Source of the DNA: Candidatus Moraniibacteriota bacterium
GTDB lineage: Bacteria > Patescibacteriota > Minisyncoccia > Moranbacterales > UBA1568
Direction of reading: 5' to 3'
Assembly: GCA_052034935.1 (NCBI GenBank)
Contig: JBPOIB010000001.1
Location: forward strand, 74,746 to 138,745
Length of the DNA stretch: 64,000 nt
Positions 6,417-59,299 of the stretch are shown here, in pieces; positions within the stretch are counted from its first letter, which is position 1, and the number at the start of each line of letters is the position of its first letter. A program made the position numbers and the translations under genes. Under the pieces are notes generated by a model. It was not told where the DNA came from. It worked only from the letters and a program-made list of their open reading frames with translations, and ran no database searches.

Positions 6417-6420
6417 AGGG

Positions 6421-11949: not shown

Positions 11950-12007
11950 GAAAAAAACGCCCCCGATGCATGCGATGCACCGAGGGACGATGGAGGCCGT
12001 ACTTGGC

Positions 12008-13084: not shown

Positions 13085-13126
13085 ATCATGCTCCTTTCGA
13101 GCGTTGGAAAAACCGGAAGGTCAAGC

Positions 13127-14125: not shown

Positions 14126-14345
14126 GGTCAACTCCTTTCGGGGTTTGGTTGTCAAAGGTCGAAACCCTCGGGAATCGAGGATTGGCGGCATTCTACCAGC
14201 TGGAATCGGACTGTCAATCAATGTGGAACGGGCATTTTCGGCCAGCATCTTTACAATCAGTGAGCGTTGCGGTAGGCTCGAGGCGTTCCTAAAGACCCGG
14301 GGAAATACCCCGGATTTGTTCTTACCCAAACGAAAGGACGAGGTC

Positions 14346-19596: not shown

Positions 19597-20772
19597 ATGG
19601 AAATTTCCGCTGTGATCAAAAAAACTATCCGTACCATCCTCTCGTTGACTATCGCAGCAGTTGTAGCCGGTGTTTCTGGCGCCTTTGCCTATACGGTGCT
19701 GTTTCCTCAGCTCACTGTTTGGCCGTGGACAGAGCGCTTTTCTTGGCCCGCTCCGATCAAAAATACGACCACGGTTATCGAGCGTACCGAACAGATACTT
19801 CTTTCCCCCGAAGAGGGCATAGAGCGGTTTATCACGGCTCCACGCACTGCGGTCGTGAGTGTAGTTGCCTTTCCAGAGGTGCAAAATGCGCGAGCTCTCT
19901 CCTCTTCCGGAGCGGCTAAAAGCGTCATTCCAGGCCTGCTCATCACGAATGACGGGCTGGTTGCCACGTATAGTGCAGAAAAACCGCCGGTTGAAAATCG
20001 CCGGTTCAGTGTGTTTTTTTCGGATGGTCAGAGCTCTGATGCGACATTCATCGGGTTTGATACGGTTAGGAACATCGCTTACTATCGAACGGCGCGTTCC
20101 GATACGCCCTCGATCGCCTTTACGAATTCGGCCGATATCAAGCCGGGCCGGCGCTTCATTGCGATTGCTAGGAATGCGAACGGAGACGGTGAAAAAGTTG
20201 CGGCCGGCGTGATTAGTGAATATGCACGCACGTTCAATCTTTCGGGGAAAACGGTTGCATCAACCGATAAATGGGAAGGCGTTTTCTTTCTTGATCGAGA
20301 GATAGACCCGGCTTTTTCTGGTGGAGCAGTAGTGGCGATGAATGGTGAATTGATTGGCCTTATCGGCATGACAGTGCTTGACGGGGAGGAGCGTGTTTTT
20401 GTGCTTCCGGCGAACGCCCTGCGGCAATCGTTCGAACGTGTGGTGGAACGGCCTGATGACGCCTCTCGACAGGATTTTGGTGCCTACTACCTACCTTTGA
20501 CGCCAGCGACGGCGCGAGTGCTTGGTCTTGTCCGTGATCGCGGCGCCTACATCTATACCCCCTCTGAAAAAAACAGTCTAGCTGTTATTTCTGGCTCGCT
20601 TGCTGAACGGATGGGCGTCCGGTACGGAGACATCATTATCTCCGTAAATGGTACCGAGATTGATCTCGATCGGCCGTTCTCGGTTGCGCTCGATAGCGTT
20701 GCGACCGGCGGTGAAGTGGTGCTTGCGGCTGATCGGGGAGGAAAGAGAATTGAACTTCGCGGAGTGCGCTAG
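19597..20772 (+). CDS. HtrA-like protein with PDZ domain, probably catalytically degenerate
   Basis: An N-terminal TM helix and a trypsin-fold-like region in which the His box reads ITNDGLV and the Ser box reads FSGGAV, instead of TNxHV / GNSGGP. The C-terminal PDZ is intact (GDIIISVNGTEI). Confidence 0.6.
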   Translation: MEISAVIKKTIRTILSLTIAAVVAGVSGAFAYTVLFPQLTVWPWTERFSWPAPIKNTTTVIERTEQILLSPEEGIERFITAPRTAVVSVVAFPEVQNARALSSSGAAKSVIPGLLITNDGLVATYSAEKPPVENRRFSVFFSDGQSSDATFIGFDTVRNIAYYRTARSDTPSIAFTNSADIKPGRRFIAIARNANGDGEKVAAGVISEYARTFNLSGKTVASTDKWEGVFFLDREIDPAFSGGAVVAMNGELIGLIGMTVLDGEERVFVLPANALRQSFERVVERPDDASRQDFGAYYLPLTPATARVLGLVRDRGAYIYTPSEKNSLAVISGSLAERMGVRYGDIIISVNGTEIDLDRPFSVALDSVATGGEVVLAADRGGKRIELRGVR

Positions 20773-20876
20773 TTGTAGTTATGTGGCAAAGAGTTATAAA
20801 AGGCTTGAAGAGGCCTTTTTTTCTTTGACACTGGTCGAGAGAGTCCGTACAATGAAGGAAATTACTGCCCTGTCAT

Positions 20877-22133
20877 ATGCGACAATCATCACTTTTTACG
20901 AAGACTTTGAAGACTGCGCCGGCCGACGAAGTGAGTCGCAATGCGTCGCTGCTCATCCGCGCCGGCTATGTCCATAAGGAGATGGCAGGCGTCTATAGCT
21001 ACTTGACGCTGGGACTCCGGACGCTCGAGAAAATCATCTGTATCATCCGGGAAGAGATGAATGTGGCTGGTGGCAATGAGATTCTCATGCCGGCGCTCCA
21101 GGACAAGCAACTCTGGCAGAAAACGGACCGCTGGGACGACACCAAGGTTGATAACTGGTTCAAGACCGAGTTCAAGTCCGGTGGCGAAACTGGCCTCGGC
21201 ATCACGCATGAAGAGCCGGTGACGAATATGATGCGCGGCCATATCGCTTCGTATCGTGACTTGCCGAAGTCCGTCTACCAATTTCAAACGAAGTTTCGAA
21301 ATGAGCTCCGAGCCAAGAGCGGTATCATGCGCGGAAAAGAGTTTCTCATGAAAGATCTCTACACCTTTGATCGCAGTGATGAAGAGCATCAGAAATCGTA
21401 TGTCCGGGTGCGCGAGGCCTATTTCCGAGTCTTCGATCGGCTTGGAATCGGTGAACGAACACATGTGACGTTCGCTTCGGGTGGAATTTTCAGCCGGTTT
21501 TCCGAAGAGTTCCAGACGGTTTCTGATGCGGGCGAAGATGTCATCTATGTCCACGAACAGAAAGGCATCGCGCTCAACAAGGAAGTCATGACCGATGACG
21601 TACTCACCGAGCTTGCTGTCGAACGCAAGGATCTGGTGGAGCGAAAATCGATTGAGGTGGGGAATATTTTCCATCTTGGAACGAAGTTTTCCGAACCGCT
21701 CGGTCTGACGTATAAAGACGAGTCGGGTGAATCACATCCAGTGGTGATGGGCTGCTACGGTATCGGCCCAACTCGGCTCCTTGGTACTATCGTCGAAGTA
21801 CTGGCGGACGAAAAAGGCTTGGTCTGGCCGAAATCAATTGCGCCATTCCAAGTCCACCTGCTCTCGCTCGGGGCAGACGAAAAGGCAGCTGAGATTTATA
21901 CCCTCTTAACGAAGGCGGGGATTGAAGTTTTGTATGACGATCGGGATATGCGTGCCGGCGAGAAATTCGCCGAATCGGATTTGCTTGGGATTCCATACCG
22001 CGTTGTTGTTGGTAGGCGTTCGGTCGAGAGCGGCGAAGCAGAAGTGAAATTGCGGACCGGGGAGCGGACAGATACTATCGCGTTTGAAAAGCTTATTGAT
22101 TATTTCCATACCGCGTATGTCAAAGGCGAATAG
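20877..22133 (+). CDS. proS: Prolyl-tRNA synthetase, short bacterial-type form lacking the INS editing domain
   Basis: Class II motifs (FRNELRAKSGIMRGKEF, GCYGIGPTRL) with a C-terminal anticodon-binding domain. At 418 aa it is much shorter than ~570-aa bacterial ProRS. Confidence 0.85.
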   Translation: MRQSSLFTKTLKTAPADEVSRNASLLIRAGYVHKEMAGVYSYLTLGLRTLEKIICIIREEMNVAGGNEILMPALQDKQLWQKTDRWDDTKVDNWFKTEFKSGGETGLGITHEEPVTNMMRGHIASYRDLPKSVYQFQTKFRNELRAKSGIMRGKEFLMKDLYTFDRSDEEHQKSYVRVREAYFRVFDRLGIGERTHVTFASGGIFSRFSEEFQTVSDAGEDVIYVHEQKGIALNKEVMTDDVLTELAVERKDLVERKSIEVGNIFHLGTKFSEPLGLTYKDESGESHPVVMGCYGIGPTRLLGTIVEVLADEKGLVWPKSIAPFQVHLLSLGADEKAAEIYTLLTKAGIEVLYDDRDMRAGEKFAESDLLGIPYRVVVGRRSVESGEAEVKLRTGERTDTIAFEKLIDYFHTAYVKGE

Positions 22134-45601: not shown

Positions 45602-45669
45602 ACAGCTGCTCGGGAAAACGCTAGATTGAGAGCGGTCCGGTGCTTTCTGGCGGAGGGAGACGAAAATTT

Positions 45670-45746
45670 GGTCGCATAGTTCAGTTGGTTAGAACGTTCG
45701 ATTCACATTCGAAAGGTCCCTGGTTCGAGTCCAGGTGCGACCACCA
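45670..45746 (+). tRNA. tRNA-Val (anticodon CAC), CCA encoded
   Basis: A cloverleaf read by hand: acceptor GGTCGCA/TGCGACC, D-arm GTTC/GAAC, anticodon stem TTCGA/TCGAA with loop TTCACAT, and T-arm CCTGG-TTCGAGT-CCAGG. Confidence 0.85.
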
Positions 45747-45762
45747 AATATATTTCTTGAGT

Positions 45763-47088
45763 ATGCTCGACATCGGATTCATTCGGGACAACGAAGCGGC
45801 CATTCGTTCGGCAATCATGAACAAGAATCTCTCGCTGGATCTTGACCATCTGATTGCTGTAGACAAAGAGCGGCGCGAGCTCCTCCAAAAGATGGAGGAG
45901 TTGAAGTCGCTCAAGAATGACATCAATACTCTCATCCAATCAGCTGCCTCGCCGGAGGAACGGGCGGAAGTGATCGCGAAAGGGAAGGAGATTAAAGCTG
46001 CGCTCGAGGTGGTGGAGCCGGACTGGCGGCGAGTCAAGGCGGAATTCGATGTCCTCATGGCGGCAGTGCCCAATATCGTCTCTCCGGATACGCCGATTGG
46101 CAAAAGCGATGCGGAAAACAAGGAGGTGCTCGTTTCAGGTAATAAGCCGTCTTTTCCGTTCGCTCCGAAAACACATATCGAAATCGGCCATGACCTGGAC
46201 ATCCTTGACCTTGAGCGGGGTGCGAAGGTTGGCGGCTACAGAGGTTATTATGTGAAGAATGAGGGCGTTCTTCTCGTCATGGGACTCATGATGTATGCAC
46301 TCCAGAAGCTTGCCGCCAGAGGCTATCAGCCGATGATTCCACCGACTCTGGTCAAAGGGTTTCCACTTTTCGGCTCCGGCTATTTCAAGGGTCTCGACTA
46401 CGATCAGTCAATCGATGAAGTCTATGAAGTGGCGTCCGCTGACAAAGAGAGTGACGGCAGCATCTCGAAAGAACAGAAGTTCCTTGTTGGTACTGCCGAA
46501 CCATCGCTTCTTGCCTACTATAGCGACGAGGTGCTCGACGAGTCTGTCCTCCCGCTCCGGCTGGCGGGTTTCAGTCAGTGCTACCGTAGTGAGATTGGCT
46601 CTTATGGCAAGGATACCAAGGGGATGTACCGCGTCCATGAATTCATGAAGGTGGAGCAGGTTGTCATCGCGCCGGCCGATATCGCGCTCGCCGATTCACT
46701 CCAGGAAGAGATGATCGGCCTGTCCGAAGAGATGCATCAAGAGCTTGGGTTACCATATCGCAAGATCCAGATCTGCACTGGCGATATGAGCGCGGGGAAA
46801 TATCGTGCGTTCGATCTGGAGGCGTGGATGCCGGGAATGAACCGCTATGGTGAAACTGGCTCAGCCTCGAACTTCCTTGATTGGCAGGCCCGTCGGCTCA
46901 ATGTGAAGTATACTGAGGGAAGAACAGGTGAGAAGCGCTACGTGTATATGCTCAACAATACAGCACTTCCGACGCCGCGTGTCCTTATTGCCATTCTTGA
47001 AAATAATCAGGAGAGCGATGGGAGTGTTCGGGTACCGGAAGTTTTGCGGCCATTCGTGGGCAAGGATCGGATTCAGAAAAAAGGATAG
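45763..47088 (+). CDS. serS: Seryl-tRNA synthetase
   Basis: An N-terminal coiled-coil arm and class II core (RSEIGSYGKDTKGMYRVHEF, GETGSASN). The start is at ATG 45763; the upstream part of the track ORF runs through the tRNA. Confidence 0.9.
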   Translation: MLDIGFIRDNEAAIRSAIMNKNLSLDLDHLIAVDKERRELLQKMEELKSLKNDINTLIQSAASPEERAEVIAKGKEIKAALEVVEPDWRRVKAEFDVLMAAVPNIVSPDTPIGKSDAENKEVLVSGNKPSFPFAPKTHIEIGHDLDILDLERGAKVGGYRGYYVKNEGVLLVMGLMMYALQKLAARGYQPMIPPTLVKGFPLFGSGYFKGLDYDQSIDEVYEVASADKESDGSISKEQKFLVGTAEPSLLAYYSDEVLDESVLPLRLAGFSQCYRSEIGSYGKDTKGMYRVHEFMKVEQVVIAPADIALADSLQEEMIGLSEEMHQELGLPYRKIQICTGDMSAGKYRAFDLEAWMPGMNRYGETGSASNFLDWQARRLNVKYTEGRTGEKRYVYMLNNTALPTPRVLIAILENNQESDGSVRVPEVLRPFVGKDRIQKKG

Positions 47089-47153: not shown

Positions 47154-47226
47154 GGGTGCGTAGCTCAGTCGGTAGAGCAGTGGCCTTTTAAGCCAACGGT
47201 CGAGGGTTCGATTCCCCCCGCACCCA
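47154..47226 (+). tRNA. tRNA-Lys (anticodon UUU), no encoded CCA
   Basis: Acceptor GGGTGCG/CGCACCC, D-arm GCTC/GAGC, anticodon loop CTTTTAA, and T-loop TTCGATT. There is one G-A at pair 27-43 and one A-C in the T-stem. Confidence 0.75.
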
Positions 47227-47236
47227 CAAAACGAAA

Positions 47237-47446: not shown

Positions 47447-48625
47447 ATGTTGCGAAAAATAACGCACCTTACCTTGCTTCCCGCTACTCTTCTCATGCTC
47501 TCGGGCTGCAGTCTGAAACCACCGATTGTTGGAAATACCCCAGCGAATCCCGATCAAGATCCCAATGCCTTTAGTGCTACGGTTGAACCGGGGAGTATCT
47601 GGCGCTCCGATGATGGCGGTAAGTCATTCGCCCCAAAGGTATATGTCGATGAGAAGCGCAAGGTAACGAAGGCAGACGTTCTCAATATCTCCTTTCTTCT
47701 TCGGGAGGATGAAGAAACGCGAACTCAGACGGCCGAAATCCGTCGCGTCCCGGACATCTATGTCGGTACGATTGATGACATGATTTTCAAGACAGTTGAT
47801 GGTGCCGAAGTCTGGGAGCCAGTCAACTTTCCTCCGCAAAAAGTCTATAGCTTTGTCGCCTCCAAGCGGAGCGTCGATCGGATGTATGCAACCGGAGCGG
47901 TTGCGGGAAGAGGAAAAATATTTCGCACCATTGACGGTGGCGAGACATGGAAGGATGTTTACAGCGAACCAGGGGCTGGTACAACTATCGTCTCGTTGGC
48001 AGAGCATCCGATGGACATCAATCTCCTCTACGCTGGAACGAGTGCTGGGACGGTGGTCCTGAGTCGTGACGGCGGAGAAACCTGGAAGAATGTCGGAACA
48101 GCAGTAAACGGACCGATTACCGGTATTGTCTTCGATGCCAAAGAAAAGAACATAGTGTACCTCCTTGCCTTCAATTCGAAGATCTACACGACGTCAGACG
48201 CCGGTGATACCTGGAAAGACCTCGATACGCTGCGGACCGAAGAGAAGAAAAAAAATCCTGATTCTGCAGCGAAACCAGTTGTCGCGATGCAGGCCATCAA
48301 TATCCTCGTCGCTGATCCCTATATCTCAGGCACGATTTATGCTGGCACGAAAACGGGAATCTTCCGAAGCCGCGATTTCGGGATCAACTTTGAAAGGATG
48401 AATATCATCGAGAGCGCGGAGAAGTTCCCCATTCGGGCGCTCGCCATCAATCCGAAGAATTCGAATGAAATCGTTTTTGTTGCTGGCCGGACATTTTATA
48501 AGTCCATGAATGGCGGAGATACCTGGTCGGTTGAGCTCCTCTCTGTCGACCGAGAAGTCTCCGTCCTCACCTATGATCCGCTCTATCCAGAAGTACTGTA
48601 TCTCGGACTCCGTAAACTGAAATAA
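47447..48625 (+). CDS. Lipoprotein with BNR/Asp-box-like beta-propeller repeats (Ycf48/sortilin-like)
   Basis: A lipobox LLMLSGC. A repeated S/D-x-DGG-x-(S/T)-W motif occurs at least 6 times (DGGKSF, DGAEVW, DGGETW x2, DAGDTW, NGGDTW). Confidence 0.7.
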   Translation: MLRKITHLTLLPATLLMLSGCSLKPPIVGNTPANPDQDPNAFSATVEPGSIWRSDDGGKSFAPKVYVDEKRKVTKADVLNISFLLREDEETRTQTAEIRRVPDIYVGTIDDMIFKTVDGAEVWEPVNFPPQKVYSFVASKRSVDRMYATGAVAGRGKIFRTIDGGETWKDVYSEPGAGTTIVSLAEHPMDINLLYAGTSAGTVVLSRDGGETWKNVGTAVNGPITGIVFDAKEKNIVYLLAFNSKIYTTSDAGDTWKDLDTLRTEEKKKNPDSAAKPVVAMQAINILVADPYISGTIYAGTKTGIFRSRDFGINFERMNIIESAEKFPIRALAINPKNSNEIVFVAGRTFYKSMNGGDTWSVELLSVDREVSVLTYDPLYPEVLYLGLRKLK

Positions 48626-50366: not shown

Positions 50367-50424
50367 AAACCGCTTCGACGTGGGATGATTGCTCCAGGTG
50401 GAGGCAGAGAAGAGCCCTATTGAC

Positions 50425-50521
50425 CCCGTTAGAGATAACGTGGGTTTTTCATGCGAAACGCCCTGCCGATAATGCCTGAGATGAAGCGTTTTCGATGCCT
50501 AATAACCGAATCTCTAACGGG
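50425..50521. mobile_element. MITE-like palindromic-terminus element, copy B (97 bp, inverted relative to copy A)
   Basis: CCCGTTAGAGAT at 50425-50436 and ATCTCTAACGGG at 50510-50521. It is flanked by TTGAC (50420-24) and G+TTGAC (50522-27); the right flank forms the -35 box of the downstream promoter. The interior shares GGCATC(G)AAAA / CCTGCC blocks with copy A in reverse orientation. Confidence 0.5.
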
Positions 50522-50522
50522 G

Positions 50523-50551
50523 TTGACAAAAAGCTCTTTTTTTGCTAGTAT
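50523..50551 (+). promoter_or_regulatory. Sigma70 consensus-like promoter TTGACA-N17-TAGTAT
   Basis: TTGACA at 50523-28 and TAGTAT at 50546-51, 30 nt upstream of the wzz-like ATG. The same TTGACAAAAG…TAGTAT architecture recurs at 54516 and 63733. Confidence 0.5.
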
Positions 50552-50581: not shown

Positions 50582-51211
50582 ATGCCGATGAACAATGTTT
50601 TGGCTCTACTGTGGGGAAAAAAGGGGAGTGTCTTCCTTTTTGGTGTCTTCGTGTCCGCTGCGGTCTTCTTCGTTGAGACAGCGGTATCGCCGCGTTACGC
50701 TGTGCGAACCGACTTCATGGTGGTACAATCATCTGGCTCTCAGGACTTCTATACGCTTTTCAAATCGTCCGAATACCTGAGCAAGGTCCTTTCCGAATCG
50801 CTCTATAGCGAGCGCTTCATCAACGCCGTCATTGAGACGGGCAAGGTGAGCGCACAGGGATTCTTGCCGACCAATAAGAAAGACCGGCTCACTGCTTGGC
50901 GCTCGATGGTCGCGGTCGAAAAGAATATCGAACTCGGCATGCTTGCCGTGACCGTGAAGTCCGATACCGAGAAAGAGGCGTCGAAGACGATGGACGCGAT
51001 TTCGGATGTTCTCATTAACCGCAACAAAGAATTCCGCGGCGGCGATGAGAAGGCGATCGAGATCCGCATCCTCTCCGGTCCGATCAGCGACCGTAATCCG
51101 AACCCGAAAGACCTACTTGTACTCGCTCTCGCAGGGTTCATCGCCGGCGCTTTCATCCGCTCCGCCTGGATCGCGGTGAAAGTCATCGATACTTCAGCGA
51201 AACGAGGATAA
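50582..51211 (+). CDS. Wzz/chain-length-determinant-like protein (two TM, short periplasmic domain)
   Basis: An N-terminal TM followed by SPRYAVRTDFMVV (the P-x-Y-x-A…V pattern of Wzz N-termini), and a C-terminal TM (LLVLALAGFIAGAFI). Confidence 0.55.
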   Translation: MPMNNVLALLWGKKGSVFLFGVFVSAAVFFVETAVSPRYAVRTDFMVVQSSGSQDFYTLFKSSEYLSKVLSESLYSERFINAVIETGKVSAQGFLPTNKKDRLTAWRSMVAVEKNIELGMLAVTVKSDTEKEASKTMDAISDVLINRNKEFRGGDEKAIEIRILSGPISDRNPNPKDLLVLALAGFIAGAFIRSAWIAVKVIDTSAKRG

Positions 51212-51349
51212 TATTTCTGGAGAAAGAGGGGGCTCTCGCCTCCTCTGGACCATCTCTCTCGAGAACGAGGGGGTTGTTCCAGAGGATAGCGTCGAAAAAG
51301 TTCGTTCAAAACTTACTGCTTACAATCAATCAACACAAGGAGTCTTAGC

Positions 51350-52210
51350 ATGCGATTCACATCGCTCGCTCTCATGTCAGTCCTGACGGTGCTCGTTGGC
51401 TGTTCGTCACTTCCCCGCGATAGCGGCTTCGAAGTGCGGACGGTTGAAGCGACCGGCCGCCAGGAGCCGTGGCAGAACCGCGCGCTCAACCGCAGCGTGT
51501 TCGCCAAGAACGGCATCGCAGTGGTCTACGTCGCACTGCCGCAGCCGCTCCCGGAAAAGTGGAAGAAAGAATTCGTCGACACCGCCCGAACCTACGAGGT
51601 CCGGGAGGGACGGCGGAAAGTCTCGAAGTCGCTGGTCCGGGAAGTATTTCGCGCCGTCGCGACCTATGGTCCGAACGAGGTATCGATCTATGACGCCGTC
51701 GTCGATCGGGACAAGGGCTTCATGGTCCTCATCCCGGTTTCCGATCGGCGCCGGATTGAAGGGAAGTCCCTCCATATCTTGTCTTCGGACGGGAAGTGGG
51801 GGATGACGACCCTCGGTGTCATGCTCGAGTTCGAGAAGGGGTTCGCCCCGGACCGGATTCTCGCCACACCGAGCTCGCTCGTGACCCAAGTGATCCATCT
51901 TGATCCGGAAGGCGACGAGAATGCGAGGCGCATGCTTGATCGTCTGGTCAAGTCTTTCCCCGAGCCGTTCTGGTTCCGGGGCAAGGCCGAAGCCTACATC
52001 GGCAAAAGCGATGTGGTCACCGTCATCGCCGAATTCACTTCGGTCGACAGTGCAGCCGATCGGCTGATCTCGTGTACGAGCCTCAAGCTCGGACCGAATA
52101 CCGTCGCGGCACTCCCTCTCGTCGCGACACTCTATGCCTACCAGGCCGTGAGCGCGCTGACCAAGGAAGACTGCTACCAACCGATCCGTCTCCCGGATGC
52201 CCCGACATAA
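51350..52210 (+). CDS. Lipoprotein, unknown function
   Basis: A signal peptide with lipobox LVGCSS, 286 aa, and an AAGGAG Shine-Dalgarno. GC rises to ~62% from here. Confidence 0.55.
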   Translation: MRFTSLALMSVLTVLVGCSSLPRDSGFEVRTVEATGRQEPWQNRALNRSVFAKNGIAVVYVALPQPLPEKWKKEFVDTARTYEVREGRRKVSKSLVREVFRAVATYGPNEVSIYDAVVDRDKGFMVLIPVSDRRRIEGKSLHILSSDGKWGMTTLGVMLEFEKGFAPDRILATPSSLVTQVIHLDPEGDENARRMLDRLVKSFPEPFWFRGKAEAYIGKSDVVTVIAEFTSVDSAADRLISCTSLKLGPNTVAALPLVATLYAYQAVSALTKEDCYQPIRLPDAPT

Positions 52211-52374
52211 GGGCAGCCGGATCCGAGTCGGAGCGATCTGTAAAGAAAGGAGCTCATCCGTGAGCGACCCATCCGTTTTGAAACCGTCCAGGGATCAAGC
52301 GTGGGTCGCTCATATCGACCCACCTTTGTTCCTGGGTTTACCAAATGAACCTATGGCTGAAGGAGGCCGAAATC

Positions 52375-54354
52375 ATGACTGACTCTGTCCAATCCGGCGC
52401 TCCTAAAAGCGTCCAAACCCACGCGACGAGCGATCGTCCGTGGTACTTCCATCCTGTCGCAATCATCATCACTGCCGTCCTCATCGCCATCGTGGCAAGC
52501 TTCCTCACCTTCACCCCTCAGGGTGCGGCGTGGATGAAGTCCCTCCGGGCTTCGGGTACGGCTGTTCCGATGGCTGTGGCTCCCGCTGCTTCGGCTGCCG
52601 AGACGGCTGCCAGCGCTGCTGCCCAGGCTGAACCGCAACCGGCGGCAGCTGACGCAGCGACCGAACCCAAGACCTACACGGTCGAAAAGGACGACTGGCT
52701 CTCGCTGGTTTTCCCGAACGACTGGAAGTCTGTCTGCGAACTGAACCGCGACATCCTGAAGAAGGGTTGCGGTCACATCGTCGAGGGCCAGGTGCTGAAG
52801 CTCCCCGAAGGCGTCCAAGCCACGGAAAAGAGCGCCCGCGCCAGGAAGCCCCAAGGCAAAAAGGTCGTCAAGACCGAAAAGCCCCAGGCTTCGCGTGCGG
52901 TTCTGCCGAAGACAAACGCTGCAGGCGAAATCCTGTACGCGAGAGTCGGCGCGGCACCCCTGAACGGCTGCGGCAAGCGCGACATCGCTGATATCAGCAA
53001 GGAAGCATGGAATGTGCTCGGCCTGTCGGAAGACGACCAAGCTTACCTCGTGCTGAATGCTGACCTGAAGTACGGTCCGCGCATCAATGCCACGGCCCAT
53101 TCCGGCATCGTGCAGCTCGTGCCCGACATGCGTCTCGATCAGGTCACCTTCTGCCGCAAGGGCAAGGTGGTCGCGATCGGTCCCATGCGCACGGCCTGGA
53201 ATCAGGATACGGCGGTCTACGGCGAACGGTTCGTGCTTCCTTCCGGCAAGTTGCTGGTGTGGATGCGCAACTGCTTCAATTGGGTCATCCTCCCCGAGGA
53301 GAAGAAGGCACTTCCTGTGCCCCCTCCTCTCCCCGAGGAGCCCCCGATCGAGCCGCTGCCGCCCGAACTACCTGTCTCAGTGCCACTGCCTGTGGTCCCG
53401 CCGCCGACCGTCGCCGAAGCCCCCAAAGGCCTGTGCGATTGGATCGACATGGCTGGCGCCCTCGGCCAGCACCATGTCCCTCGTCAGAACGGGGACAAGG
53501 CAAGCTCTGACTTCCTCACCTTCGTCTTGGACTGCCAACAGCGCCTCGAAAGCAATGATGGTTCCTGGGGCATCGGTGGGAAGGCTGAATACTCTGCCTG
53601 GCATGGGACTGCCAACCGTGGTGTCGGCAAGTACGAAGGCTGGAACTACAAGGCGATGGTTTCGTACCGCCAGATTATGGACGAAGGGTACGACTGGGGT
53701 GTGGCCGCCGGCGTCGGGCATCAGCGCGAGCGCTACCATCAGGACAAGTACGCTTCTCGAAGCGACTATGACCTGGTGACCGTCTCGCTGGTCCATAACG
53801 ACTACCGTCGCCGCATGGCCGGTGAGACCTGGGACGTGGAACGCCAGTATTACGGCGGCATCACGATCCCGATCGCATCGGAGCTCAGCCACACGTGGAA
53901 CGGCGAGAAGATCGCCGACACGTCCGGTATGGGTCGCCTCAAGTTCGGCGTCCAAGCTGGCGCCCGCTGGTGGTTCTACGAGTCCCAAGATCTGCCGTTC
54001 CTGCCGTATCTCGAAGGCGGACTGTTCGTCCAGCATCCGACGAGCGCGTCGGGCAATGCCATGATCGGTATCGCTGATCCGGCCCGCATCTGTGGCATCG
54101 GCATCGGCATCGACCAGGACTTCCAGAACGGCGGCAACCCCGTCGGTGCCTGGGGATGGAACTGCGACCCCTTCCAGGGTGCTCGTGTCGTCCGCTCCAA
54201 GTACCGCAAGCATCAGGTCATTACCGATGCAGCGAGGAGGGGCGTCACGATCGAGGAGAAGGACGGGTATATCCAGAGCATCCGCTTTGGACCAGAATGG
54301 CTCAAGACGCAAGGTCTGACCATCGTGCCCGCTCCCGATTCGAGTAAGCAGTAA
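52375..54354 (+). CDS. Membrane-anchored LysM-domain protein with Pro-rich linker and large uncharacterised C-terminal domain
   Basis: GAAGGAGG Shine-Dalgarno 7 nt before ATG 52375. A TM helix, then LysM (YTVEKDDWLSLVFPN…GHIVEGQVLKLP), a linker PVPPPLPEEPPIEPLPPELPVSVPLPVVPPP, and a ~320-aa Trp/Gly-rich domain of unknown fold. Confidence 0.6.
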   Translation: MTDSVQSGAPKSVQTHATSDRPWYFHPVAIIITAVLIAIVASFLTFTPQGAAWMKSLRASGTAVPMAVAPAASAAETAASAAAQAEPQPAAADAATEPKTYTVEKDDWLSLVFPNDWKSVCELNRDILKKGCGHIVEGQVLKLPEGVQATEKSARARKPQGKKVVKTEKPQASRAVLPKTNAAGEILYARVGAAPLNGCGKRDIADISKEAWNVLGLSEDDQAYLVLNADLKYGPRINATAHSGIVQLVPDMRLDQVTFCRKGKVVAIGPMRTAWNQDTAVYGERFVLPSGKLLVWMRNCFNWVILPEEKKALPVPPPLPEEPPIEPLPPELPVSVPLPVVPPPTVAEAPKGLCDWIDMAGALGQHHVPRQNGDKASSDFLTFVLDCQQRLESNDGSWGIGGKAEYSAWHGTANRGVGKYEGWNYKAMVSYRQIMDEGYDWGVAAGVGHQRERYHQDKYASRSDYDLVTVSLVHNDYRRRMAGETWDVERQYYGGITIPIASELSHTWNGEKIADTSGMGRLKFGVQAGARWWFYESQDLPFLPYLEGGLFVQHPTSASGNAMIGIADPARICGIGIGIDQDFQNGGNPVGAWGWNCDPFQGARVVRSKYRKHQVITDAARRGVTIEEKDGYIQSIRFGPEWLKTQGLTIVPAPDSSKQ

Positions 54355-54382
54355 GTCCACAAGTCGGGGGAGTTCCCTCGTA

Positions 54383-54420
54383 GGGGCGGCGTCGATCACA
54401 CTCGATGCCGCCCTTTTTCT
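54383..54420 (+). terminator. Rho-independent terminator
   Basis: A 12-bp stem GGGCGGCGTCGA / TCGATGCCGCCC with loop TCACAC, followed by TTTTT. Confidence 0.6.
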
Positions 54421-54515
54421 TTTTCCGTCGCAGTAAGGTGGACAAGAGTAAAAAAAGCCGATTGCAGCAGTCATTTTGAGGCTCATGAAAGCCATTTTTT
54501 TATACTGATACGGGC

Positions 54516-54544
54516 TTGACAAAAGCCAGTTTTTGCTCTAGTAT
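54516..54544 (+). promoter_or_regulatory. Promoter TTGACA-N17-TAGTAT
   Basis: TTGACAAAAGCC…TAGTAT, ~85 nt upstream of the ATG at 54628. A strong hairpin (CCGGCATTTCCC-ggat-GGGAAATGGCG, 54563-54590) lies in the 5'UTR. Confidence 0.5.
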
Positions 54545-54627
54545 GTAGGGTCATCTTCCTTGTCCGGCATTTCCCGGATGGGAAATGGCGAACCTCTTTA
54601 CCAACCAGCCTTGAAAGGGCGTACACC

Positions 54628-55344
54628 ATGAAGACCTCCGTCTCCATCCTGATGGCTTTCGCCATCGCCATCCTGCCGGGTCTCGCGCTCGCGCAGGCCA
54701 AGCCCACCGTCGCCGTCGATGGCAACACCGATGCCGTGGGCAAGCTGCTTCCGACCGGTGGCACCAGCATGACCGCCACCTCCGACGGCAAGACCACGAC
54801 CCTGACCTTGCGCCAGCTGTACGCCTTCGGCGAAGCCGGCCTCGGCAAGGGCGAGAACGGCGCCAAGAAGAAGCTCGACATGGAGCAGGGCACCGCGTAC
54901 ATGCTGCGGGCCAATTCCCGCGACTGGCGCGGCGGCCGGACCGCGGCAAGCGTCAAGCTCGACGACGACAAGGGTGCGGTCATCCTGGCCAAGGGTGTGA
55001 TCACCGACAACACGGTGACGTTCACGTTCCCGAGCGGCCGCGCGAAGCCGGGCGATCCGTTCGACTGCAAGAGCACCAATTTCCTGGTGCAGCCCAAGAG
55101 CGGCAACCGTGCCGATCGTGCCTGGCTCGGCCACCCCGGCTGGGCCGCCGCCAACACGGCGCCGAACATCGGCGACTACATGGTCCTCGCGGGTGACGAT
55201 GCCCGTTTCCCGGCGACCGCGCTCTGCTATGACGCGAACGGCAAGCTGGTGCCGCTGACCCCGGCCATGCGCGCCGAGCTCTCGAAGATCATCAACAAGC
55301 CCGAAGGCGCCGACAAGGCGACCCGGGTGGCCGCGGACAACTGA
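54628..55344 (+). CDS. Secreted protein, unknown function
   Basis: A signal peptide (MKTSVSILMAFAIAILPGLALAQA), 238 aa, no known motif. High-GC codon usage. Confidence 0.6.
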   Translation: MKTSVSILMAFAIAILPGLALAQAKPTVAVDGNTDAVGKLLPTGGTSMTATSDGKTTTLTLRQLYAFGEAGLGKGENGAKKKLDMEQGTAYMLRANSRDWRGGRTAASVKLDDDKGAVILAKGVITDNTVTFTFPSGRAKPGDPFDCKSTNFLVQPKSGNRADRAWLGHPGWAAANTAPNIGDYMVLAGDDARFPATALCYDANGKLVPLTPAMRAELSKIINKPEGADKATRVAADN

Positions 55345-55367
55345 CCTGCAAGCCTGCCGCAAGCCCG

Positions 55368-55412
55368 AAGGGCTCCCAACCGAACGCAACACGTTCACCG
55401 GGAGCCCTTTTT
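55368..55412 (+). terminator. Rho-independent terminator (long loop)
   Basis: AAGGGCTCCC … GGGAGCCCTT followed by TTTTT. Confidence 0.5.
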
Positions 55413-55439
55413 CATACCTAAAAATAGCGTTTTCATTCA

Positions 55440-55468
55440 TTGACAAGAAAGACTTTTTATAGTATCAT
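55440..55468 (+). promoter_or_regulatory. Promoter TTGACA-N17-TATCAT
   Basis: TTGACAAGAAAG…TAGTATCAT, ~105 nt upstream of ATG 55573. Confidence 0.45.
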
Positions 55469-55572
55469 GGGGAGTCAATTCCGGGCTTGAATAAAGCCTG
55501 GCATTGGCAGGTTTTTCAAGTCCCTTCCCATCTAGTCTGATTTATTTTCAGGCCACAACTCAGGAGTTTGCC

Positions 55573-56118
55573 ATGCAAGCCACACGTCCCTTTTTCTCGT
55601 TCCGCATCGCCTGCGCCGTACTGCTTCTCATCGGCGTCGCGTTCCTTGCGAACCCGGCCCGTGCGGAGACCGTCAAGGTCGAAGGCAATGCGCCCACCCC
55701 GACCATCGTGAGCATCGTGGCCAAGGGTGCCGGCCAAGGTGAAGTCACCATCACCGGTGTCCAGTTGAAGTCCAGCCTGTCCTACTGCCTCATCGGCGTG
55801 GGGCGCGGCAACTGGTACGGCACTGCGACCAAGGTCCAGCTCGAGAAGATCGGCTGCGCCAAGGCCGTCAGCGGTTCGGTAACCGTGCCGATCCGTCTCG
55901 ATGCCAAGCGCTACGAAGCGAACGGCAGCGTCATCGGCTACATCCCGATCGTGACCGACGCGAACGGCGTCATCATCGATTGGCCGCAGAAGCCCGTCGG
56001 TGCTCTCACGTTCGAGCGCACGAGCGGCAAGCCGGATGAGGCCATCGCCGTCTTCTGGGCGACGAACGGCCAACCAAAGCTCGCCACGGCCGAACAAGCC
56101 ATGACCATCAACGACTAA
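55573..56118 (+). CDS. Secreted protein, unknown function
   Basis: A signal peptide ending ANPARA, 181 aa, and an AGGAG Shine-Dalgarno. The start was moved to ATG 55573 from the upstream alternative in the track. Confidence 0.6.
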   Translation: MQATRPFFSFRIACAVLLLIGVAFLANPARAETVKVEGNAPTPTIVSIVAKGAGQGEVTITGVQLKSSLSYCLIGVGRGNWYGTATKVQLEKIGCAKAVSGSVTVPIRLDAKRYEANGSVIGYIPIVTDANGVIIDWPQKPVGALTFERTSGKPDEAIAVFWATNGQPKLATAEQAMTIND

Positions 56119-56127
56119 GGAGAACGC

Positions 56128-56877
56128 ATGTTCCATCGACTCATCGGAGCGCTCCTTGCGCTCCTTGTCTCGGGCTTCGTCTGGTCCGCGCCCTGTGCAC
56201 CGGGCTTGCCTGAGCGCCTCATCCCAGAGGCGGGGAAGGAGGGCACCGCCTTCTTTGCGAGCGAGACCATCAAGGACGAGTACCAGAATCCGGCCTGGAT
56301 GGCCAGGCAGAAGTTCGACCGTCTGGTTGGCATGTGGAACGCCGTGACGGTGTACCCCTGCGACCGCGGCCGGCCGGCGACGATCGAGTTCCACTCGTTC
56401 GAGATCGTCCGGCTCGACAAGACGACTGGCCGTCTCGTGCCCGAGCTCACCCTCGTGTTCGATGGTTCCACTGGCTCGTCGTTCGACGACATCAGCCAAT
56501 GGAAACGCGCCCCCGAATGGTGGGTGAACGGCCGGGCTGATCGCGAGCCTTCGGTCGTCAGCGTGAAAAGCGGCGTGTTCCGGGTCGACCTGAAGTCGGT
56601 GCCCGACAACATCGTCCACATGTGGACGAGCCGCATCGCTGCCAAAGCTGGCGAGATCTACGGTATCCGGGCGAAGGTCCGGATCGCCGGCGATGCCCGC
56701 TTGCAGGTCGCCATGGATTACTGGAAGGGCTTCGAAAGCCCCGAAGGAAGGCCCTGGAAGCCGGCTTGTGAAGGCATGGCCAACTGCGAAGCTTGGCTCG
56801 GCGACTGGTACGGCGATACCGGTGGCAAGTTCGTCACTGTCGTCTCGCCGCGGTCACTCCTCGGCAAGTCCTACTAG
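56128..56877 (+). CDS. Secreted protein, paralog A of a tandem pair
   Basis: A signal peptide and AAGGAG Shine-Dalgarno. It shares TAFFA(S/T)ETI…EYQ, LVGM(W/L)NAVTVYPCDRG, GDARLQ…MDYW(K/R)G, and C(E/Q)AWL…GDT.GKFVT blocks with 57051-57818. Confidence 0.65.
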   Translation: MFHRLIGALLALLVSGFVWSAPCAPGLPERLIPEAGKEGTAFFASETIKDEYQNPAWMARQKFDRLVGMWNAVTVYPCDRGRPATIEFHSFEIVRLDKTTGRLVPELTLVFDGSTGSSFDDISQWKRAPEWWVNGRADREPSVVSVKSGVFRVDLKSVPDNIVHMWTSRIAAKAGEIYGIRAKVRIAGDARLQVAMDYWKGFESPEGRPWKPACEGMANCEAWLGDWYGDTGGKFVTVVSPRSLLGKSY

Positions 56878-56895
56878 CAGCAATGCTGCTCTCTC

Positions 56896-56935
56896 GGCCC
56901 CAATGGATTTACAATCCGGCGGGGCCTGTTTTTTT
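56896..56935 (+). terminator. Rho-independent terminator
   Basis: GGCCCC …19 nt… GGGGCC followed by TGTTTTTTT. Confidence 0.5.
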
Positions 56936-57050
56936 ATCCGCTCATACCCTTGACAAAATATAAAATAAGGAGCATTATATAAAGTCATTTTCCAGACACT
57001 TCCGTTTGGAAGTGACGCCCTTTCAGCCCCTTACCAATAGGAGTTCCGCC

Positions 57051-57818
57051 ATGAAGGCAATCTGGAAATCATTTTTCGCTTTCGTTTTCGTCCTGTCCGG
57101 CCTGAGCCCGGCCATGTCCCAGACCCTGTCTGGCGTCTGCCCAGCACCGGTGCCGACCGCGAGTCCGACCATCCCGCAAGGCGTGGCGACTGGCGACACG
57201 GCCTTCTTCGCGACCGAGACGATCGCGCCGGAGTATCAGCCGCCCTCGAACATGTACAACCAGGGCTTCAACTACCTGGTGGGCATGCTGAATGCGGTGA
57301 CGGTCTATCCGTGCGATCGCGGCAAGGCAGCCAAGATCGAACTGAACAGCCTGCGCGTCATCCAGCGTGATTTCGTTGGCGTCGAAACGGTGGTGCAGCA
57401 CGTCACCTTCGGCCGCGGCTGGCAGAAGCCCAACAGTCTGGTCTACAAGACCTTTTACCGCGAACCGGGCTGGTTCACGAGCGGTGCGCCCGAAGCGCAG
57501 CCGACGCTCGCCTCGATCGCGCAGCAGACCTACGCCGTCGACCTGCGGTCCATCCCGAAGGGTATCTTCCATGCCTGGACGAATCCGCGGACGCCGGCCA
57601 TACCCGGCTATGCCTATTTCGTCGAAGTGGTGGTCCGGGTGACGGGTGATGCGCGCCTGCAGCTCGGCATGGACTACTGGCGCGGCAGCGACTCGGACTA
57701 CACCGGCTGGACGCCCGGCTGCACCGGTTCGAACAACTGCCAAGCGTGGCTGTCGAACTGGCTCGGCGACACGAAAGGCAAGTTCGTGACCTGGCGGGCG
57801 CCGTCGATGGCCTTCTGA
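57051..57818 (+). CDS. Secreted protein, paralog B of a tandem pair
   Basis: A signal peptide (MKAIWKSFFAFVFVLSGLSPAMSQ) and an AGGAG Shine-Dalgarno. It is a paralog of 56128-56877, and has its own promoter-like TTGACA at 56950. Confidence 0.65.
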   Translation: MKAIWKSFFAFVFVLSGLSPAMSQTLSGVCPAPVPTASPTIPQGVATGDTAFFATETIAPEYQPPSNMYNQGFNYLVGMLNAVTVYPCDRGKAAKIELNSLRVIQRDFVGVETVVQHVTFGRGWQKPNSLVYKTFYREPGWFTSGAPEAQPTLASIAQQTYAVDLRSIPKGIFHAWTNPRTPAIPGYAYFVEVVVRVTGDARLQLGMDYWRGSDSDYTGWTPGCTGSNNCQAWLSNWLGDTKGKFVTWRAPSMAF

Positions 57819-57861
57819 CGACTCCTGCGAGATTCCATTCTCGCGTACTCGCCTGATGACA

Positions 57862-57900
57862 AGCCTCACTTTTCGCAACCACGAAGGGTGAGGCTGTTTT
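57862..57900. terminator. Bidirectional terminator between convergent genes
   Basis: AGCCTCAC …18 nt… GTGAGGCT followed by a T-run. It sits between the + gene ending 57818 and the - gene ending 57905. Confidence 0.5.
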
Positions 57901-57904
57901 ATTT

Positions 57905-59299
57905 CTAGTAAGAATCCTGCAGCTCGCGGGGGAGCGAGTGATGGAAGAGGGCGAGGAAACCGCCGACGACGATCGCGAGGATCCACTGGACCGGGGTATT
58001 CTTGAAGACATTGTCGGAGAGGCTTGCGATGACGAGGGTCGCGAGGAGGAGTAGGAGAAGGACTGCCATGTTCTTCAGGCTGTGGCTCGGGGAAAGGCGC
58101 TTCACCTGGATGATCGGAAAGGCGAAAGTGACGAGATAGAGCACAAGGACACCGAGACCGACCAGGCCGCCTTCGACATAGAACTTCACGAAATCGTTGT
58201 GGGACTCGTTCGAGCCGAAACGTTCGCCCCGCAGCTGCTCGGAGGAGATGCGAAAGGTGTCGAGGCCGCTGCCGTAGCGGACTCGCTCTTCAAGTTGGGT
58301 CTTCAAGATCATGTCGTGCCAGAGGTTTTGCCGCCAGACGATCGATGAGTCGGCCGTCGGATTGAGCGCTTCGACGACGCGCTCCTTCACGGCCGGAACG
58401 AAAGCGGTGAGCACGATCGGGAGCAGGATGAGCGGCAGGAGGAGAAAACGAAAGCGCCAAAGCGCGAGGAGGAGTAGGAAGACAAAGAGCGCGACCCACG
58501 CGATGCGCGCGAACGTGAGGAGGAGCGTGAAGAGGACGAGGCTGATATAGAGGAGCGTGAGGAGTCGCGCACCGTCTTTCCGGGCGTAGACGATCCCGTA
58601 GATGGTCGCGACGGCGGCCACGGTGAAGAGGTAGAGACTGAAGACATTCGGATGGCTGAAGGTGCCGAAGATGCGGAGAGCGGAAACGTTCTCGTCGGAG
58701 AGTCCGATGCCGAAGGCGAACTGGTAGAGTCCGAAGGTAATCGGGATGAGACTTGAAATGAAGATCGCCATGAGAAGCCGCCGGTAATCGCGGTAGCGCT
58801 CCACACTCGCATAGGCGATGAAGCCGACGACGAAGAGGTCGAAGATGCGAAGCGCTTCCTGAGCCGTGCTCGACGGTGAGATCGAATAGACGAGGGTGCC
58901 GAGACCCCAGGTGATGACGAGGCCGTAGGGGACGACGAGCGCATAGCGGGTGAGCGCGCGGGCGTGGAGGAGGATGAAGACGATGCCGAAGCCGGCGATG
59001 CCGAGGCCGAGGAGCTGGGAAAGCGAGAGCGACAGTCCGAAGAGATCGAGCGCGAGGTATTGGGACGAATAATCGAGCGACATGCGGACCACGATGAGCG
59101 TCATGAGGAGCGCGAGCGGATTCCGGAAGAGCGCGACAATCCCGGCGATGCCCGCCATGAGCGCGACCGGGAGGAGAAGTGAGACTTTGGCGAAAACCGC
59201 GAGGAGTGCGAAAAGCGAGAATAAGGCGAGTGAAACGAGATAGGCGCGCGGGTCGGCCCAGATCGGTGTCTCTTTCAGCGCGGAAAGCTCGGGATTCAT
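57905..59299 (-). CDS. O-antigen ligase / Wzy_C-family polytopic membrane protein
   Basis: ~12 TM helices, with RIFGTFSHPNVFSLYLF matching the Wzy_C motif R..G.....H.N..S.YL. Confidence 0.7.
   Translation of the reverse strand: MNPELSALKETPIWADPRAYLVSLALFSLFALLAVFAKVSLLLPVALMAGIAGIVALFRNPLALLMTLIVVRMSLDYSSQYLALDLFGLSLSLSQLLGLGIAGFGIVFILLHARALTRYALVVPYGLVITWGLGTLVYSISPSSTAQEALRIFDLFVVGFIAYASVERYRDYRRLLMAIFISSLIPITFGLYQFAFGIGLSDENVSALRIFGTFSHPNVFSLYLFTVAAVATIYGIVYARKDGARLLTLLYISLVLFTLLLTFARIAWVALFVFLLLLALWRFRFLLLPLILLPIVLTAFVPAVKERVVEALNPTADSSIVWRQNLWHDMILKTQLEERVRYGSGLDTFRISSEQLRGERFGSNESHNDFVKFYVEGGLVGLGVLVLYLVTFAFPIIQVKRLSPSHSLKNMAVLLLLLLATLVIASLSDNVFKNTPVQWILAIVVGGFLALFHHSLPRELQDSY

Follow-up and report, generated by a model that had tools for sequence, protein, structure and literature searches.

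A lineage-specific, fast-evolving candidate envelope module with a predicted LysM-barrel protein in Candidatus Moranbacteria

The genes for S-layer and other major surface proteins of monoderm bacteria are monocistronic and have strong promoters and terminators, long structured 5′ UTRs and strong codon bias. The sequences of these proteins diverge quickly between close relatives. Peptidoglycan-tethered barrels, such as OmpA and OmpM/SlpA, are abundant and fasten an overlying layer to the wall (PMC10628300, PMC9388160). The literature treats Patescibacteria (CPR) as monoderm (PMC8871954, PMC10160955), which leaves a barrel no known membrane to sit in. An outer-membrane-type barrel joined to a peptidoglycan-binding LysM domain is unexpected in bacteria that are thought to have no outer membrane. 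Such a protein is predicted in the 64-kb stretch of DNA analyzed here, the whole of which is called the window. We consider it probable, with clear reservations, that the interval encoding it is a vertically inherited, lineage-specific and fast-evolving envelope (surface) module of Candidatus Moranbacteria/Moraniibacteriota rather than an acquired island.

The block comprises six signal-peptide genes (51350-57818), none of which has a Pfam or NCBIfam match at curated thresholds. All features are on the forward strand unless stated otherwise. The block is preceded by a Wzz-like (polysaccharide co-polymerase-like) gene (50582..51211), whose 209-aa product has a hydrophobic segment at each end, as read from the sequence. 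This protein is slowly evolving (76-84% identity among close relatives), has no match in Pfam and matches NCBIfam TIGR01006 weakly (E 2.8e-6, 26.9 bits vs. a cut-off of 296). The lipoprotein gene (51350..52210; 286 aa, lipobox LVGC, GC3 0.76) belongs to an unannotated lineage-specific family, with orthologues that are 56-72% identical in syntenic loci. The gene for the 659-aa LysM-barrel envelope protein (52375..54354) comes next and is followed by four genes for small secreted proteins with signal peptides. The first, p238 (54628..55344; 238 aa), shows the highest codon bias in the cluster (GC3 0.91) and carries a near-invariant WLGHPGW motif. It has no sequence relative in the PDB, and its family forms 22 clusters at 90% identity (0/22 annotated). 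The p181 gene (55573..56118; 181 aa, GC3 0.84) is the first in a bicistronic unit, and p249 (56128..56877; 249 aa), a predicted beta-sandwich protein with conserved cysteines, starts 9 nt past it. Its paralogue p255 (57051..57818; 39% identity) is missing from some relatives, e.g., L003. The right-hand border of the slot is a conserved Wzy_C / O-antigen-ligase-like membrane protein gene on the reverse strand (57905..59299; PF04932, E 1.9e-13), which is syntenic in all loci recovered.

Perfect TTGACA-N16-18-TAnnnT sites occur 10 times on both strands of the whole window, and four of the 10 fall within 50.5-57 kb. The promoter-like site P1 (50523..50551; TTGACA-N17-TAGTAT with a TG extension) lies 5′ of the Wzz-like gene, and its position is kept in L003, L004 and L006. 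P2 (54516..54544; TTGACA-N17-TAGTAT) stands ahead of p238, with a 5′ UTR of ~77 nt and a conserved hairpin, CATTTCCC-GGAT-GGGAAATG (about 54564-54583). The position of P3 (55440..55468; TTGACA-N17-TATCAT) is kept in relatives, and L004 and L006 have TTGACA-N17-TATTAT where P4 (56950..56978; TTGACA-N17-CATTAT) sits in the window. TTGACA-N17 sites recur at the same four positions in relatives. The 5′ UTRs of the units measure 66-98 nt. In each of the terminators T1-T4, a stable hairpin precedes a U run: T1 (54382..54415; intrinsic, 14-bp stem, -35.9 kcal/mol, z -6.4), which is kept in L003 and L004, T2 (55367..55410; intrinsic, -27.9 kcal/mol, z -3.9), T3 (56896..56926; intrinsic, -21.9 kcal/mol, z -2.7) and T4 (57862..57895, unstranded, where the p255 and Wzy_C genes converge; -26.9 kcal/mol, z -5.2). 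The preliminary description had given every unit its own promoter and terminator. This holds for the three TTGACA-N17 promoters inside the block and the four terminators, but no separate promoter was found for the lipoprotein gene or the LysM gene. Both look co-transcribed with the Wzz-like gene from P1, which is the probable start of an operon of the Wzz-like, lipoprotein, leader and LysM-barrel genes, so the first transcription unit begins outside the interval that was originally delimited. The further proposal, that secreted or surface proteins are encoded in separately controlled units suited to high expression, gains support by inference.

A conserved leader ORF of 40 codons (52260..52382; MSDPxVxxxSRxQAWVAxIDPPxFL...) ends on a stop that overlaps the start codon of the LysM-barrel gene. 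In a conserved RNA structure, which has no Rfam match, the Shine-Dalgarno sequence of that gene (52359-52370) is base-paired with a stretch of the leader (52315-52327) that encodes I-D-P-P. Compensatory changes are found at only four pairs among nine related leader sequences, and the support comes mostly from invariant sequence. The leader peptide may gate translation of the barrel gene, with a putative DPP pause site that overlaps the anti-Shine-Dalgarno element. It has no signal or membrane segment and is therefore not an obvious secretion monitor.

The 659-aa protein begins with a hydrophobic helix, a candidate membrane anchor (residues 27-46), and a LysM region (~97-150). These are followed by a conserved alpha/beta middle domain (176-310), a proline-rich spacer (311-352), a predicted 12-stranded beta-barrel (353-598; nt 53431-54168) and a C-terminal helix and hairpin (599-659). 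The LysM score of this protein alone is below the Pfam threshold, but the family profile matches the PDB LysM of LytE (E 1.7e-6) and Kbp, and 45 of 81 relatives match Pfam LysM (PF01476). The AF2 model places a beta-alpha-alpha-beta unit at residues 100-142, in the LysM region. It gives the barrel a pLDDT of >90, and the modeled barrel is closed and antiparallel; its strands are even in number and its turns are short. An alternating hydrophobic/polar belt of 9-10 residues is found on nearly all barrel strands and is conserved in 47 sequences, with weaker alternation in the long strands 1-7 when averaged over the whole strand. This periodicity suggests that the hydrophobic barrel face points outward, and the C-terminal helix would be buried in the pore. 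No Omp85/POTRA protein was found among the proteins scanned, which came from the 64-kb window and the loci of ~20 kb. That four of the secreted proteins have no recognizable domains, as first described, is true by sequence; the predicted structures, however, show a protein with LysM and a 12-stranded barrel as well as beta-sandwich proteins.

The block was originally described as GC-rich, and window bins and per-gene values confirm this. The window mean is 54.6%, the 1-kb bins that cover 51-59 kb reach 58-62%, and the six genes have a GC of 61-68% and a GC3 of 0.75-0.91, compared with a GC3 of 0.55-0.70 in neighboring genes. The original figure of 62-65% is roughly correct per gene and slightly too high for the region. 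The rise extends past the six genes in the window genome, as the Wzy_C gene has a GC3 of 0.81. Another GC-rich patch of the window lies at 12-14 kb. The codon shift is mainly toward C-ending codons and AAG. ATC rises from 0.61 to 0.94, AAC from 0.34 to 0.75, GGC from 0.38 to 0.66 and AAG from 0.53 to 0.89; GAG and CAG do not rise, and GCG and ACG are lower in the block of the window. The same pattern is seen in four relatives. The GC3 excess over the flanks also recurs across genomes of different background composition and tracks each background (L006: flanks 0.38-0.55, block 0.63-0.80; L004: flanks 0.57-0.68, block 0.75-0.93). G3 is likewise higher in L006 and L015. The composition is atypical for the host, but its offset is conserved in relatives and codon-specific, which points to selection on codon usage and not to foreign base composition. 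A rise of NNC and AAG with flat GAG and CAG is what would be expected for expression-linked bias. We infer that the six genes may be among the most strongly expressed of the cell, with the GC3 excess reflecting this bias; the block as a whole is probably highly expressed.

The gene order RRF-RseP-Wzz-like-lipoprotein-LysM protein-small secreted proteins-Wzy_C-methyltransferase-GT4 is common to >15 independent loci (L003, the complete 1.217-Mb genome CP064975.1; L004, L006, L009, L011-L020, L022 and one JGI contig). In every relative recovered, the block occupies this fixed slot, between frr-rseP-wzz-like and wzy_C-methyltransferase-GT4, and LysM protein identity across the loci is 31-68%. The window MreB clusters at ≥90% identity with MreB of Candidatus Moranbacteria/Moraniibacteriota, the lineage of all homologues with a source name. 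When 1.84 billion representatives were searched exhaustively with an HMM, 87 of the best 150 matches listed reached E≤1e-30. The matches listed belong to the same family, most of them over the linker plus barrel, and every sampled member with a source name is from Moranbacteria. Among the relatives found, the block proteins are restricted to this lineage. These results bear on an ancient acquisition, in which a diderm donor would have supplied the ancestor of the clade with the barrel protein alone or with the entire block. Inheritance would have been vertical from then on, with the GC offset as a fossil. Such an origin would suit an outer-membrane-type barrel inside a phylum considered monoderm (PMC10160955), and 1/81 relatives touches Pfam OMP_b-brl (E 1e-4). 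Nevertheless, no donor-like family is present among the HMM matches listed, and a fossil should ameliorate over divergence to ~30-50% protein identity, whereas the offset tracks the genome background. We regard this origin as unlikely.

Slightly less probable is a role in polysaccharide export. Here, a PCP / OPX-like / beta-barrel translocon made up of the Wzz-like protein, the lipoprotein and the barrel would export the polymer that the neighboring Wzy_C, methyltransferase and GT4 enzymes produce, with the small proteins as accessories. The apparent co-transcription of these three genes from P1 fits this role, as does the position of the block among Wzy_C, GT4 and beta-helix (NosD/Pel9A-like) genes, but the lipoprotein has no Poly_export/SLBB match and the Wzz-like assignment is weak. 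The barrel and the small proteins also diverge much faster than the flanking genes (identity among relatives: flanks 65-85%, middle domain 55-79%, barrel 24-45%). Export leaves unexplained both the fast evolution of the barrel beside slow glycan enzymes and the four putatively abundant, fast-evolving secreted proteins.

The GC3 excess could instead come from GC-biased gene conversion at an often-recombining locus that exchanges surface antigens, and not from expression. L016 and L014 are no more distant in their flanks than L003 and L004, yet their barrels and small proteins are strongly diverged; such a pattern would suit allelic exchange. The higher G3 of L006 and L015 is in line with conversion. 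Uniform conversion, however, should raise every G- and C-ending codon, whereas GAG/GAA and CAG/CAA are near-flat or falling beside the fall of GCG and ACG and the strong rise of NNC and AAG. As the explanation, conversion is improbable, but it could be an added contributor. The reading of the preliminary description, a recently acquired island or effector genes in "moron" cassettes of a phage-like kind, is not supported and is extremely improbable. The local GC increase of about 7-8 points and the modular promoter/terminator layout speak for it, but all >15 related loci have the block in the same slot and show the same offset in composition, with no variable presence; neither an integrase nor a transposase was found at the block, no repeats flank it and no tRNA adjoins it (the nearest tRNAs, at 45670 and 47154, are separated from it by three housekeeping genes); no relatives were found in 2.9 million viral contigs; the sole PHROG match is that of the LysM part to an endolysin family; and the codon shift is codon-specific. 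That description had set two outcomes against its island, a similar interval in all relatives and a genome-average GC near 62%; the same order and a GC3 excess were found in all relatives recovered, but the genome average is not 62%.

In the preferred reading, a vertically inherited envelope module, the N-terminal helix would hold the 659-aa protein in the cytoplasmic membrane and LysM would bind peptidoglycan. The proline-rich spacer would cross the wall and so set the hydrophobic-belted, 12-stranded barrel in a hydrophobic layer farther out. Judging from their shared location and co-varying types, the lipoprotein and the small, putatively abundant p238, p181, p249 and p255 may join the barrel or gather around it to build an outermost coat. 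Phages, hosts or grazers may exert the outside pressure under which this coat diversifies quickly.

In layout, codon bias and fast divergence, the block can be likened to the S-layer and major surface-protein genes of monoderms. Its proteins differ in that they are small (181-255 aa), carry neither SLH nor CWB2 nor any other known anchor, and are known here from genes, not from a lattice. The leader resembles leader-peptide attenuators (ErmCL, SecM, MifM, VemP and Pro-codon leaders, e.g., MgtL) in its short upstream ORF, conserved peptide and strong pause motif (DPP here). By analogy, a paused ribosome would mask a segment whose pairing partner, when left free, is the Shine-Dalgarno sequence downstream. 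The stalling is putative, and the leader has no sequence relation to these examples and no Rfam family.

The 659-aa protein has no match to the sequence models of the inverse autotransporters (type Ve: intimin, invasin, YeeJ; IAT_beta; Pfam). It starts with a long, uncleaved-looking membrane helix instead of a signal peptide, adds the conserved middle domain and the proline-rich spacer, and has only ~60 residues past the barrel in place of an Ig-like/lectin passenger; moreover, its lineage is considered to be without an outer membrane and BamA. The beta-domains of classical autotransporters (BrkA, Hbp, NalP, AIDA-I, EspP) share 5-12% sequence identity with it, and PF03797 gives no match. Their helix precedes the barrel, whereas here it follows, and their N-terminal part is a secreted passenger and not a wall-binding LysM. 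OmpA and OmpM/SlpA of diderm Terrabacteria use OmpA_C or SLH for wall binding and have 8 or 16-30 barrel strands, compared with LysM and 12 strands here, where there is an extra inner-membrane anchor and the lineage has no known outer membrane. Nevertheless, they are alike in combining a wall-binding domain and a membrane beta-barrel in one polypeptide.

Six plus-strand genes with signal peptides, bounded on one side by the Wzz-like gene and on the other by the convergent Wzy_C gene, form a block that is native and old, and it is most economically read as a highly expressed envelope module. The block starts with a lipoprotein gene (51350-52210, 286 aa, lipobox LVGC) and the gene of a 659-aa LysM protein (52375-54354; an independent gene call also uses the start at 52375). 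These are followed by the genes of four small secreted proteins, namely, p238 (54628-55344, 238 aa), p181 (55573-56118, 181 aa), p249 (56128-56877, 249 aa), and p255 (57051-57818, 255 aa). The identical 659-aa protein and the same neighbours occur on an independent Logan assembly, so the junctions of the block are not an assembly artefact. The preliminary description suggested that this block is a horizontally acquired high-GC island resembling phage "moron" cassettes. The GC rise is real: against a window mean of 54.6%, 1-kb bins across 51-59 kb reach 58-62%, and the six genes have 61-68% GC and a GC3 of 0.75-0.91 (neighbours, 0.55-0.70). In this genome, the Wzy_C gene also lies within the rise.

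The proposed horizontal origin did not survive comparison with related loci. The same slot is occupied in every locus fetched (L003, L004, L006, L009, L011-L020, L022, and one JGI contig), with LysM proteins that are 31-68% identical and with the conserved order BNR lipoprotein, RRF, RseP, Wzz-like protein, lipoprotein, LysM protein, two to four small secreted proteins, Wzy_C, methyltransferase, and GT4. Across the wzz...waaL interval, all relatives fetched carry the block, including its GC3 excess. No adjacent tRNA, flanking repeats, or mobility genes were found at the block, and scans of viral contigs with three block families gave no relatives. Elsewhere, the window carries ordinary core-genome content (exonuclease VII, PFOR, SufS/SufB, Dus, HtrA, ProRS, IspH, ClpB, MreBC, PBP2, AspRS, SerRS). 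Its MreB shares a 90%-identity cluster with MreB proteins of Moraniibacteriota, one of them from the complete 1.217-Mb genome CP064975.1 (L003). A homologue search returned about 50 proteins, and those named by organism are almost all Candidatus Moraniibacteriota. Recent horizontal transfer was rejected on the basis of the conserved slot, the codon-specific shift described below, and the lack of mobility hallmarks. An ancient acquisition from a diderm is retained as a less economical alternative.

Several features of the surrounding sequences deserve mention. The BNR/Ycf48-like beta-propeller lipoprotein (47447-48625) stands directly upstream, in the order BNR-RRF-RseP, in all related loci. 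The genes of tRNA-Val(CAC) (45670-45746) and tRNA-Lys(TTT) (47154-47227) lie on either side of the SerRS gene, and the true SerRS start must be further downstream since the ORF-finder ORF (45640-47088) runs over tRNA-Val. In L003, two Transposase_mut genes (19632-21914) are located a few kb downstream of GT4, and the acetyl-CoA synthetase (ADP-forming) neighbour present in the window is missing. In the 403-kb contig L012, frameshifts split RseP, the lipoprotein, and p238 (6148-7286, 8775-9600, 11926-12602); these are likely long-read assembly errors or decay. Some MAGs with a Moranbacteria-type locus (L009, L010, L011, L013, L015, L016, P0033) are labelled "uncultured Bdellovibrionales" or "Undibacterium sp.". 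The housekeeping proteins of L009, L010, L013, and L016 are about 80% identical to those of Moranbacteria; RseP identities of 60-66% place L011 and L015 further away. The labels are probably wrong and were set aside in view of this identity and the synteny shared with named Moranbacteria.

The base composition of the block is probably due to codon choice. Relatives with differing backgrounds keep the GC3 excess over the flanks: 0.63-0.80 versus 0.38-0.55 in L006 and 0.75-0.93 versus 0.57-0.68 in L004, with a similar excess in L009, L011, L013, and L017. In the window, the shift is mostly toward C-ending codons (C3 rises from 0.32 to 0.47-0.51, G3 only from 0.29 to 0.33). As fractions of their amino acids, ATC rises from 0.61 in the rest of the window to 0.94 in the block, TTC from 0.62 to 0.91, AAC from 0.34 to 0.75, TAC from 0.44 to 0.78, GGC from 0.38 to 0.66, and AAG from 0.53 to 0.89, while GCG and ACG are lower and GAG and CAG do not rise. 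The same asymmetry was found again in L003, L004, L006, and L015. GC-biased conversion is kept as a possible contributor, but in a uniform form it is disfavoured, as is a foreign composition, because either should raise every G- and C-ending codon. Selection for translating abundant proteins yields codon-specific patterns, and the codon usage suggests that it accounts for the GC3 excess. On this reading, modular promoters together with an abrupt local increase in GC3 can flag strongly expressed native surface genes, not foreign DNA. A second GC-rich patch on the minus strand (12008-14100, 60-64% GC, GC3 0.78) spans a dihydroorotase-like amidohydrolase gene and a dihydroorotate-dehydrogenase-like gene; in this genome, a better case for acquired DNA may be made for these pyrimidine synthesis genes.

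The translation-selection reading agrees with the conserved strong promoters, 5' UTRs of 66-98 nt, a hairpin in the p238 UTR, and strong terminators. Promoter-like TTGACA-N17 sites lie at 50523, 54516, 55440, and 56950; perfect sites of this type number ten in the whole window on both strands, four of them at the block, and the strong promoters are kept in relatives. All four terminators noticed earlier fold into stable hairpins followed by U runs. The idea that each unit has its own promoter holds for p238, p181-p249, and p255, but not for the lipoprotein and LysM genes, which apparently depend for their transcription on the Wzz-like gene's promoter. The transcription units thus appear to be Wzz-like gene/lipoprotein/leader/LysM protein, p238, p181-p249, and p255. 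A perfect 14-nt inverted repeat, with arms ACCCCGTTAGAGAT (50423-50436) and ATCTCTAACGGGGT (50510-50523) spaced by 73 nt, has an end coinciding with the -35 TTGACA of the Wzz-like promoter and could be the rseP terminator or an operator. The p238 5' UTR (about 77 nt, 54551-54627) contains the hairpin CATTTCCC-GGAT-GGGAAATG, kept in L003, L004, and L006, which, by analogy with S-layer and ompA transcripts, may act as a 5' stem-loop that stabilises the mRNA.

A conserved leader ORF (52260-52382, plus strand, 40 codons in the window) separates the lipoprotein gene from the LysM gene. It has 37-41 codons and its own Shine-Dalgarno sequence, is intact in ten loci, and encodes the consensus MSDPxVxxxSRxQAWVAxIDPPxFL; there is an overlap between its stop codon and the LysM-gene ATG. 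In the consensus fold of nine loci, the first four leader codons pair with the downstream UGGGUCGCUC, and those for I-D-P-P with the LysM gene's Shine-Dalgarno sequence. In this alignment, 98.6% of cells are paired, with compensatory changes in four pairs, versus at most 57% for slid controls. An Rfam scan of 50.3-58 kb, leader included, gave no match. The leader resembles a translational attenuator. The DPP motif ranks with the strongest EF-P-dependent pause signals, and it can be hypothesized that a ribosome paused there would mask the anti-Shine-Dalgarno element and make the LysM-gene start site accessible.

The slot is fixed, but its surface-exposed content turns over quickly. Between the window and closer relatives, flanking proteins are 65-85% identical and the lipoprotein and small proteins 45-65%; the LysM protein is itself uneven, with 55-79% identity in the middle domain and only 24-45% in the barrel. 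L016 and L014 have flanks as close as those of L003 and L004, yet their barrels are only 26-28% identical, and the pair of small secreted proteins encoded there is different; a third set occurs in L015. Profile comparison probabilities of 36-42% hint that the deviant proteins could be orthologues that have diverged to an extreme degree, not products of unrelated genes. Rapid turnover is typical for exposed envelope components. The earlier view that the four secreted proteins lack recognisable domains was upheld at sequence level: Pfam, NCBIfam, and PHROGs gave nothing for the six proteins (no Pfam/NCBIfam match at curated thresholds) except for LysM in the 659-aa protein. The p238 and p249 family profiles matched no PDB sequence, and the p238, p181, and p249 families are mutually unrelated in profile-profile comparison. 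In L006, tblastn finds an intact p249 orthologue (13827-14564), but the public gene call there is an opposite-strand ORF (14169-14561), a miscall due to the high GC3.

The AlphaFold2 model of the LysM protein, built on a 47-sequence alignment, is confident and multi-domain. It predicts a hydrophobic helix (residues 27-46), a LysM-like unit (about 100-142), an alpha/beta domain (180-306), a disordered proline-rich stretch (311-352), twelve long antiparallel strands (356-597, pLDDT >90), and a helix (599-621) with a hairpin (strands 624-629 and 632-638). The LysM identity was upheld by profile search against PDB (LytE, 1.7e-6; Kbp, 6.5e-6). Family-wide, nearly every barrel strand contains a 9-10-residue stretch in which hydrophobic residues alternate with small or polar ones, a pattern visible per position, the whole-strand hydrophobicity average being uninformative for long strands; it reads as the signature of a lipid-facing belt round a polar lumen. 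An exhaustive profile search of 1.84 billion representatives gave 87 proteins at E<=1e-30; among the matches listed, most align to the linker-plus-barrel region. Of 81 relatives chosen for matching that region, Pfam LysM is present in 45, and a single one gives a hit to OMP_b-brl, at 1e-4. The name-bearing sampled members are all Moranbacteria. No prior description of beta-barrels or porins in Patescibacteria or Moranbacteria was found in the literature; Patescibacteria are regarded as monoderm (PMC8871954, PMC10160955).

In the native envelope module, the anchor protein would reach from the cytoplasmic membrane through the wall by means of its LysM unit and proline spacer, its modelled barrel would sit in an outer hydrophobic layer, and the presumably abundant small proteins would make up or decorate the outermost coat. 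Alternatively, it might form a polysaccharide export translocon with the Wzz-like protein. The phylum is held to have lost the outer membrane. To our knowledge, the envelope of the candidate phyla radiation is almost unknown at the molecular level, and current schemes of diderm/monoderm evolution score the radiation as being without outer-membrane proteins. The LysM protein, conserved and by all appearances very strongly expressed, combines a membrane anchor, a wall-binding domain, and an outer-membrane-type barrel; it is a candidate builder of the outer layer seen on these ultra-small cells, a candidate for host contact, and a candidate target of phage and host selection.

The boldest reading, which is unlikely, is that of an abundant envelope-spanning protein with an outer-membrane-type 12-stranded barrel functional in a lipid layer, either the cell's own or that of a host. 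A new DPP-arrest leader peptide would control synthesis of the barrel, and the fast-evolving co-encoded small proteins would provide the contact surface. The barrel might be inserted in the membrane of an attached host cell as a wall-anchored uptake conduit. Otherwise, it might reside in a so far unrecognised outer lipid or toga-like layer of the cell's own, tethered through LysM, and OmpM and OmpA are then its proposed analogues.
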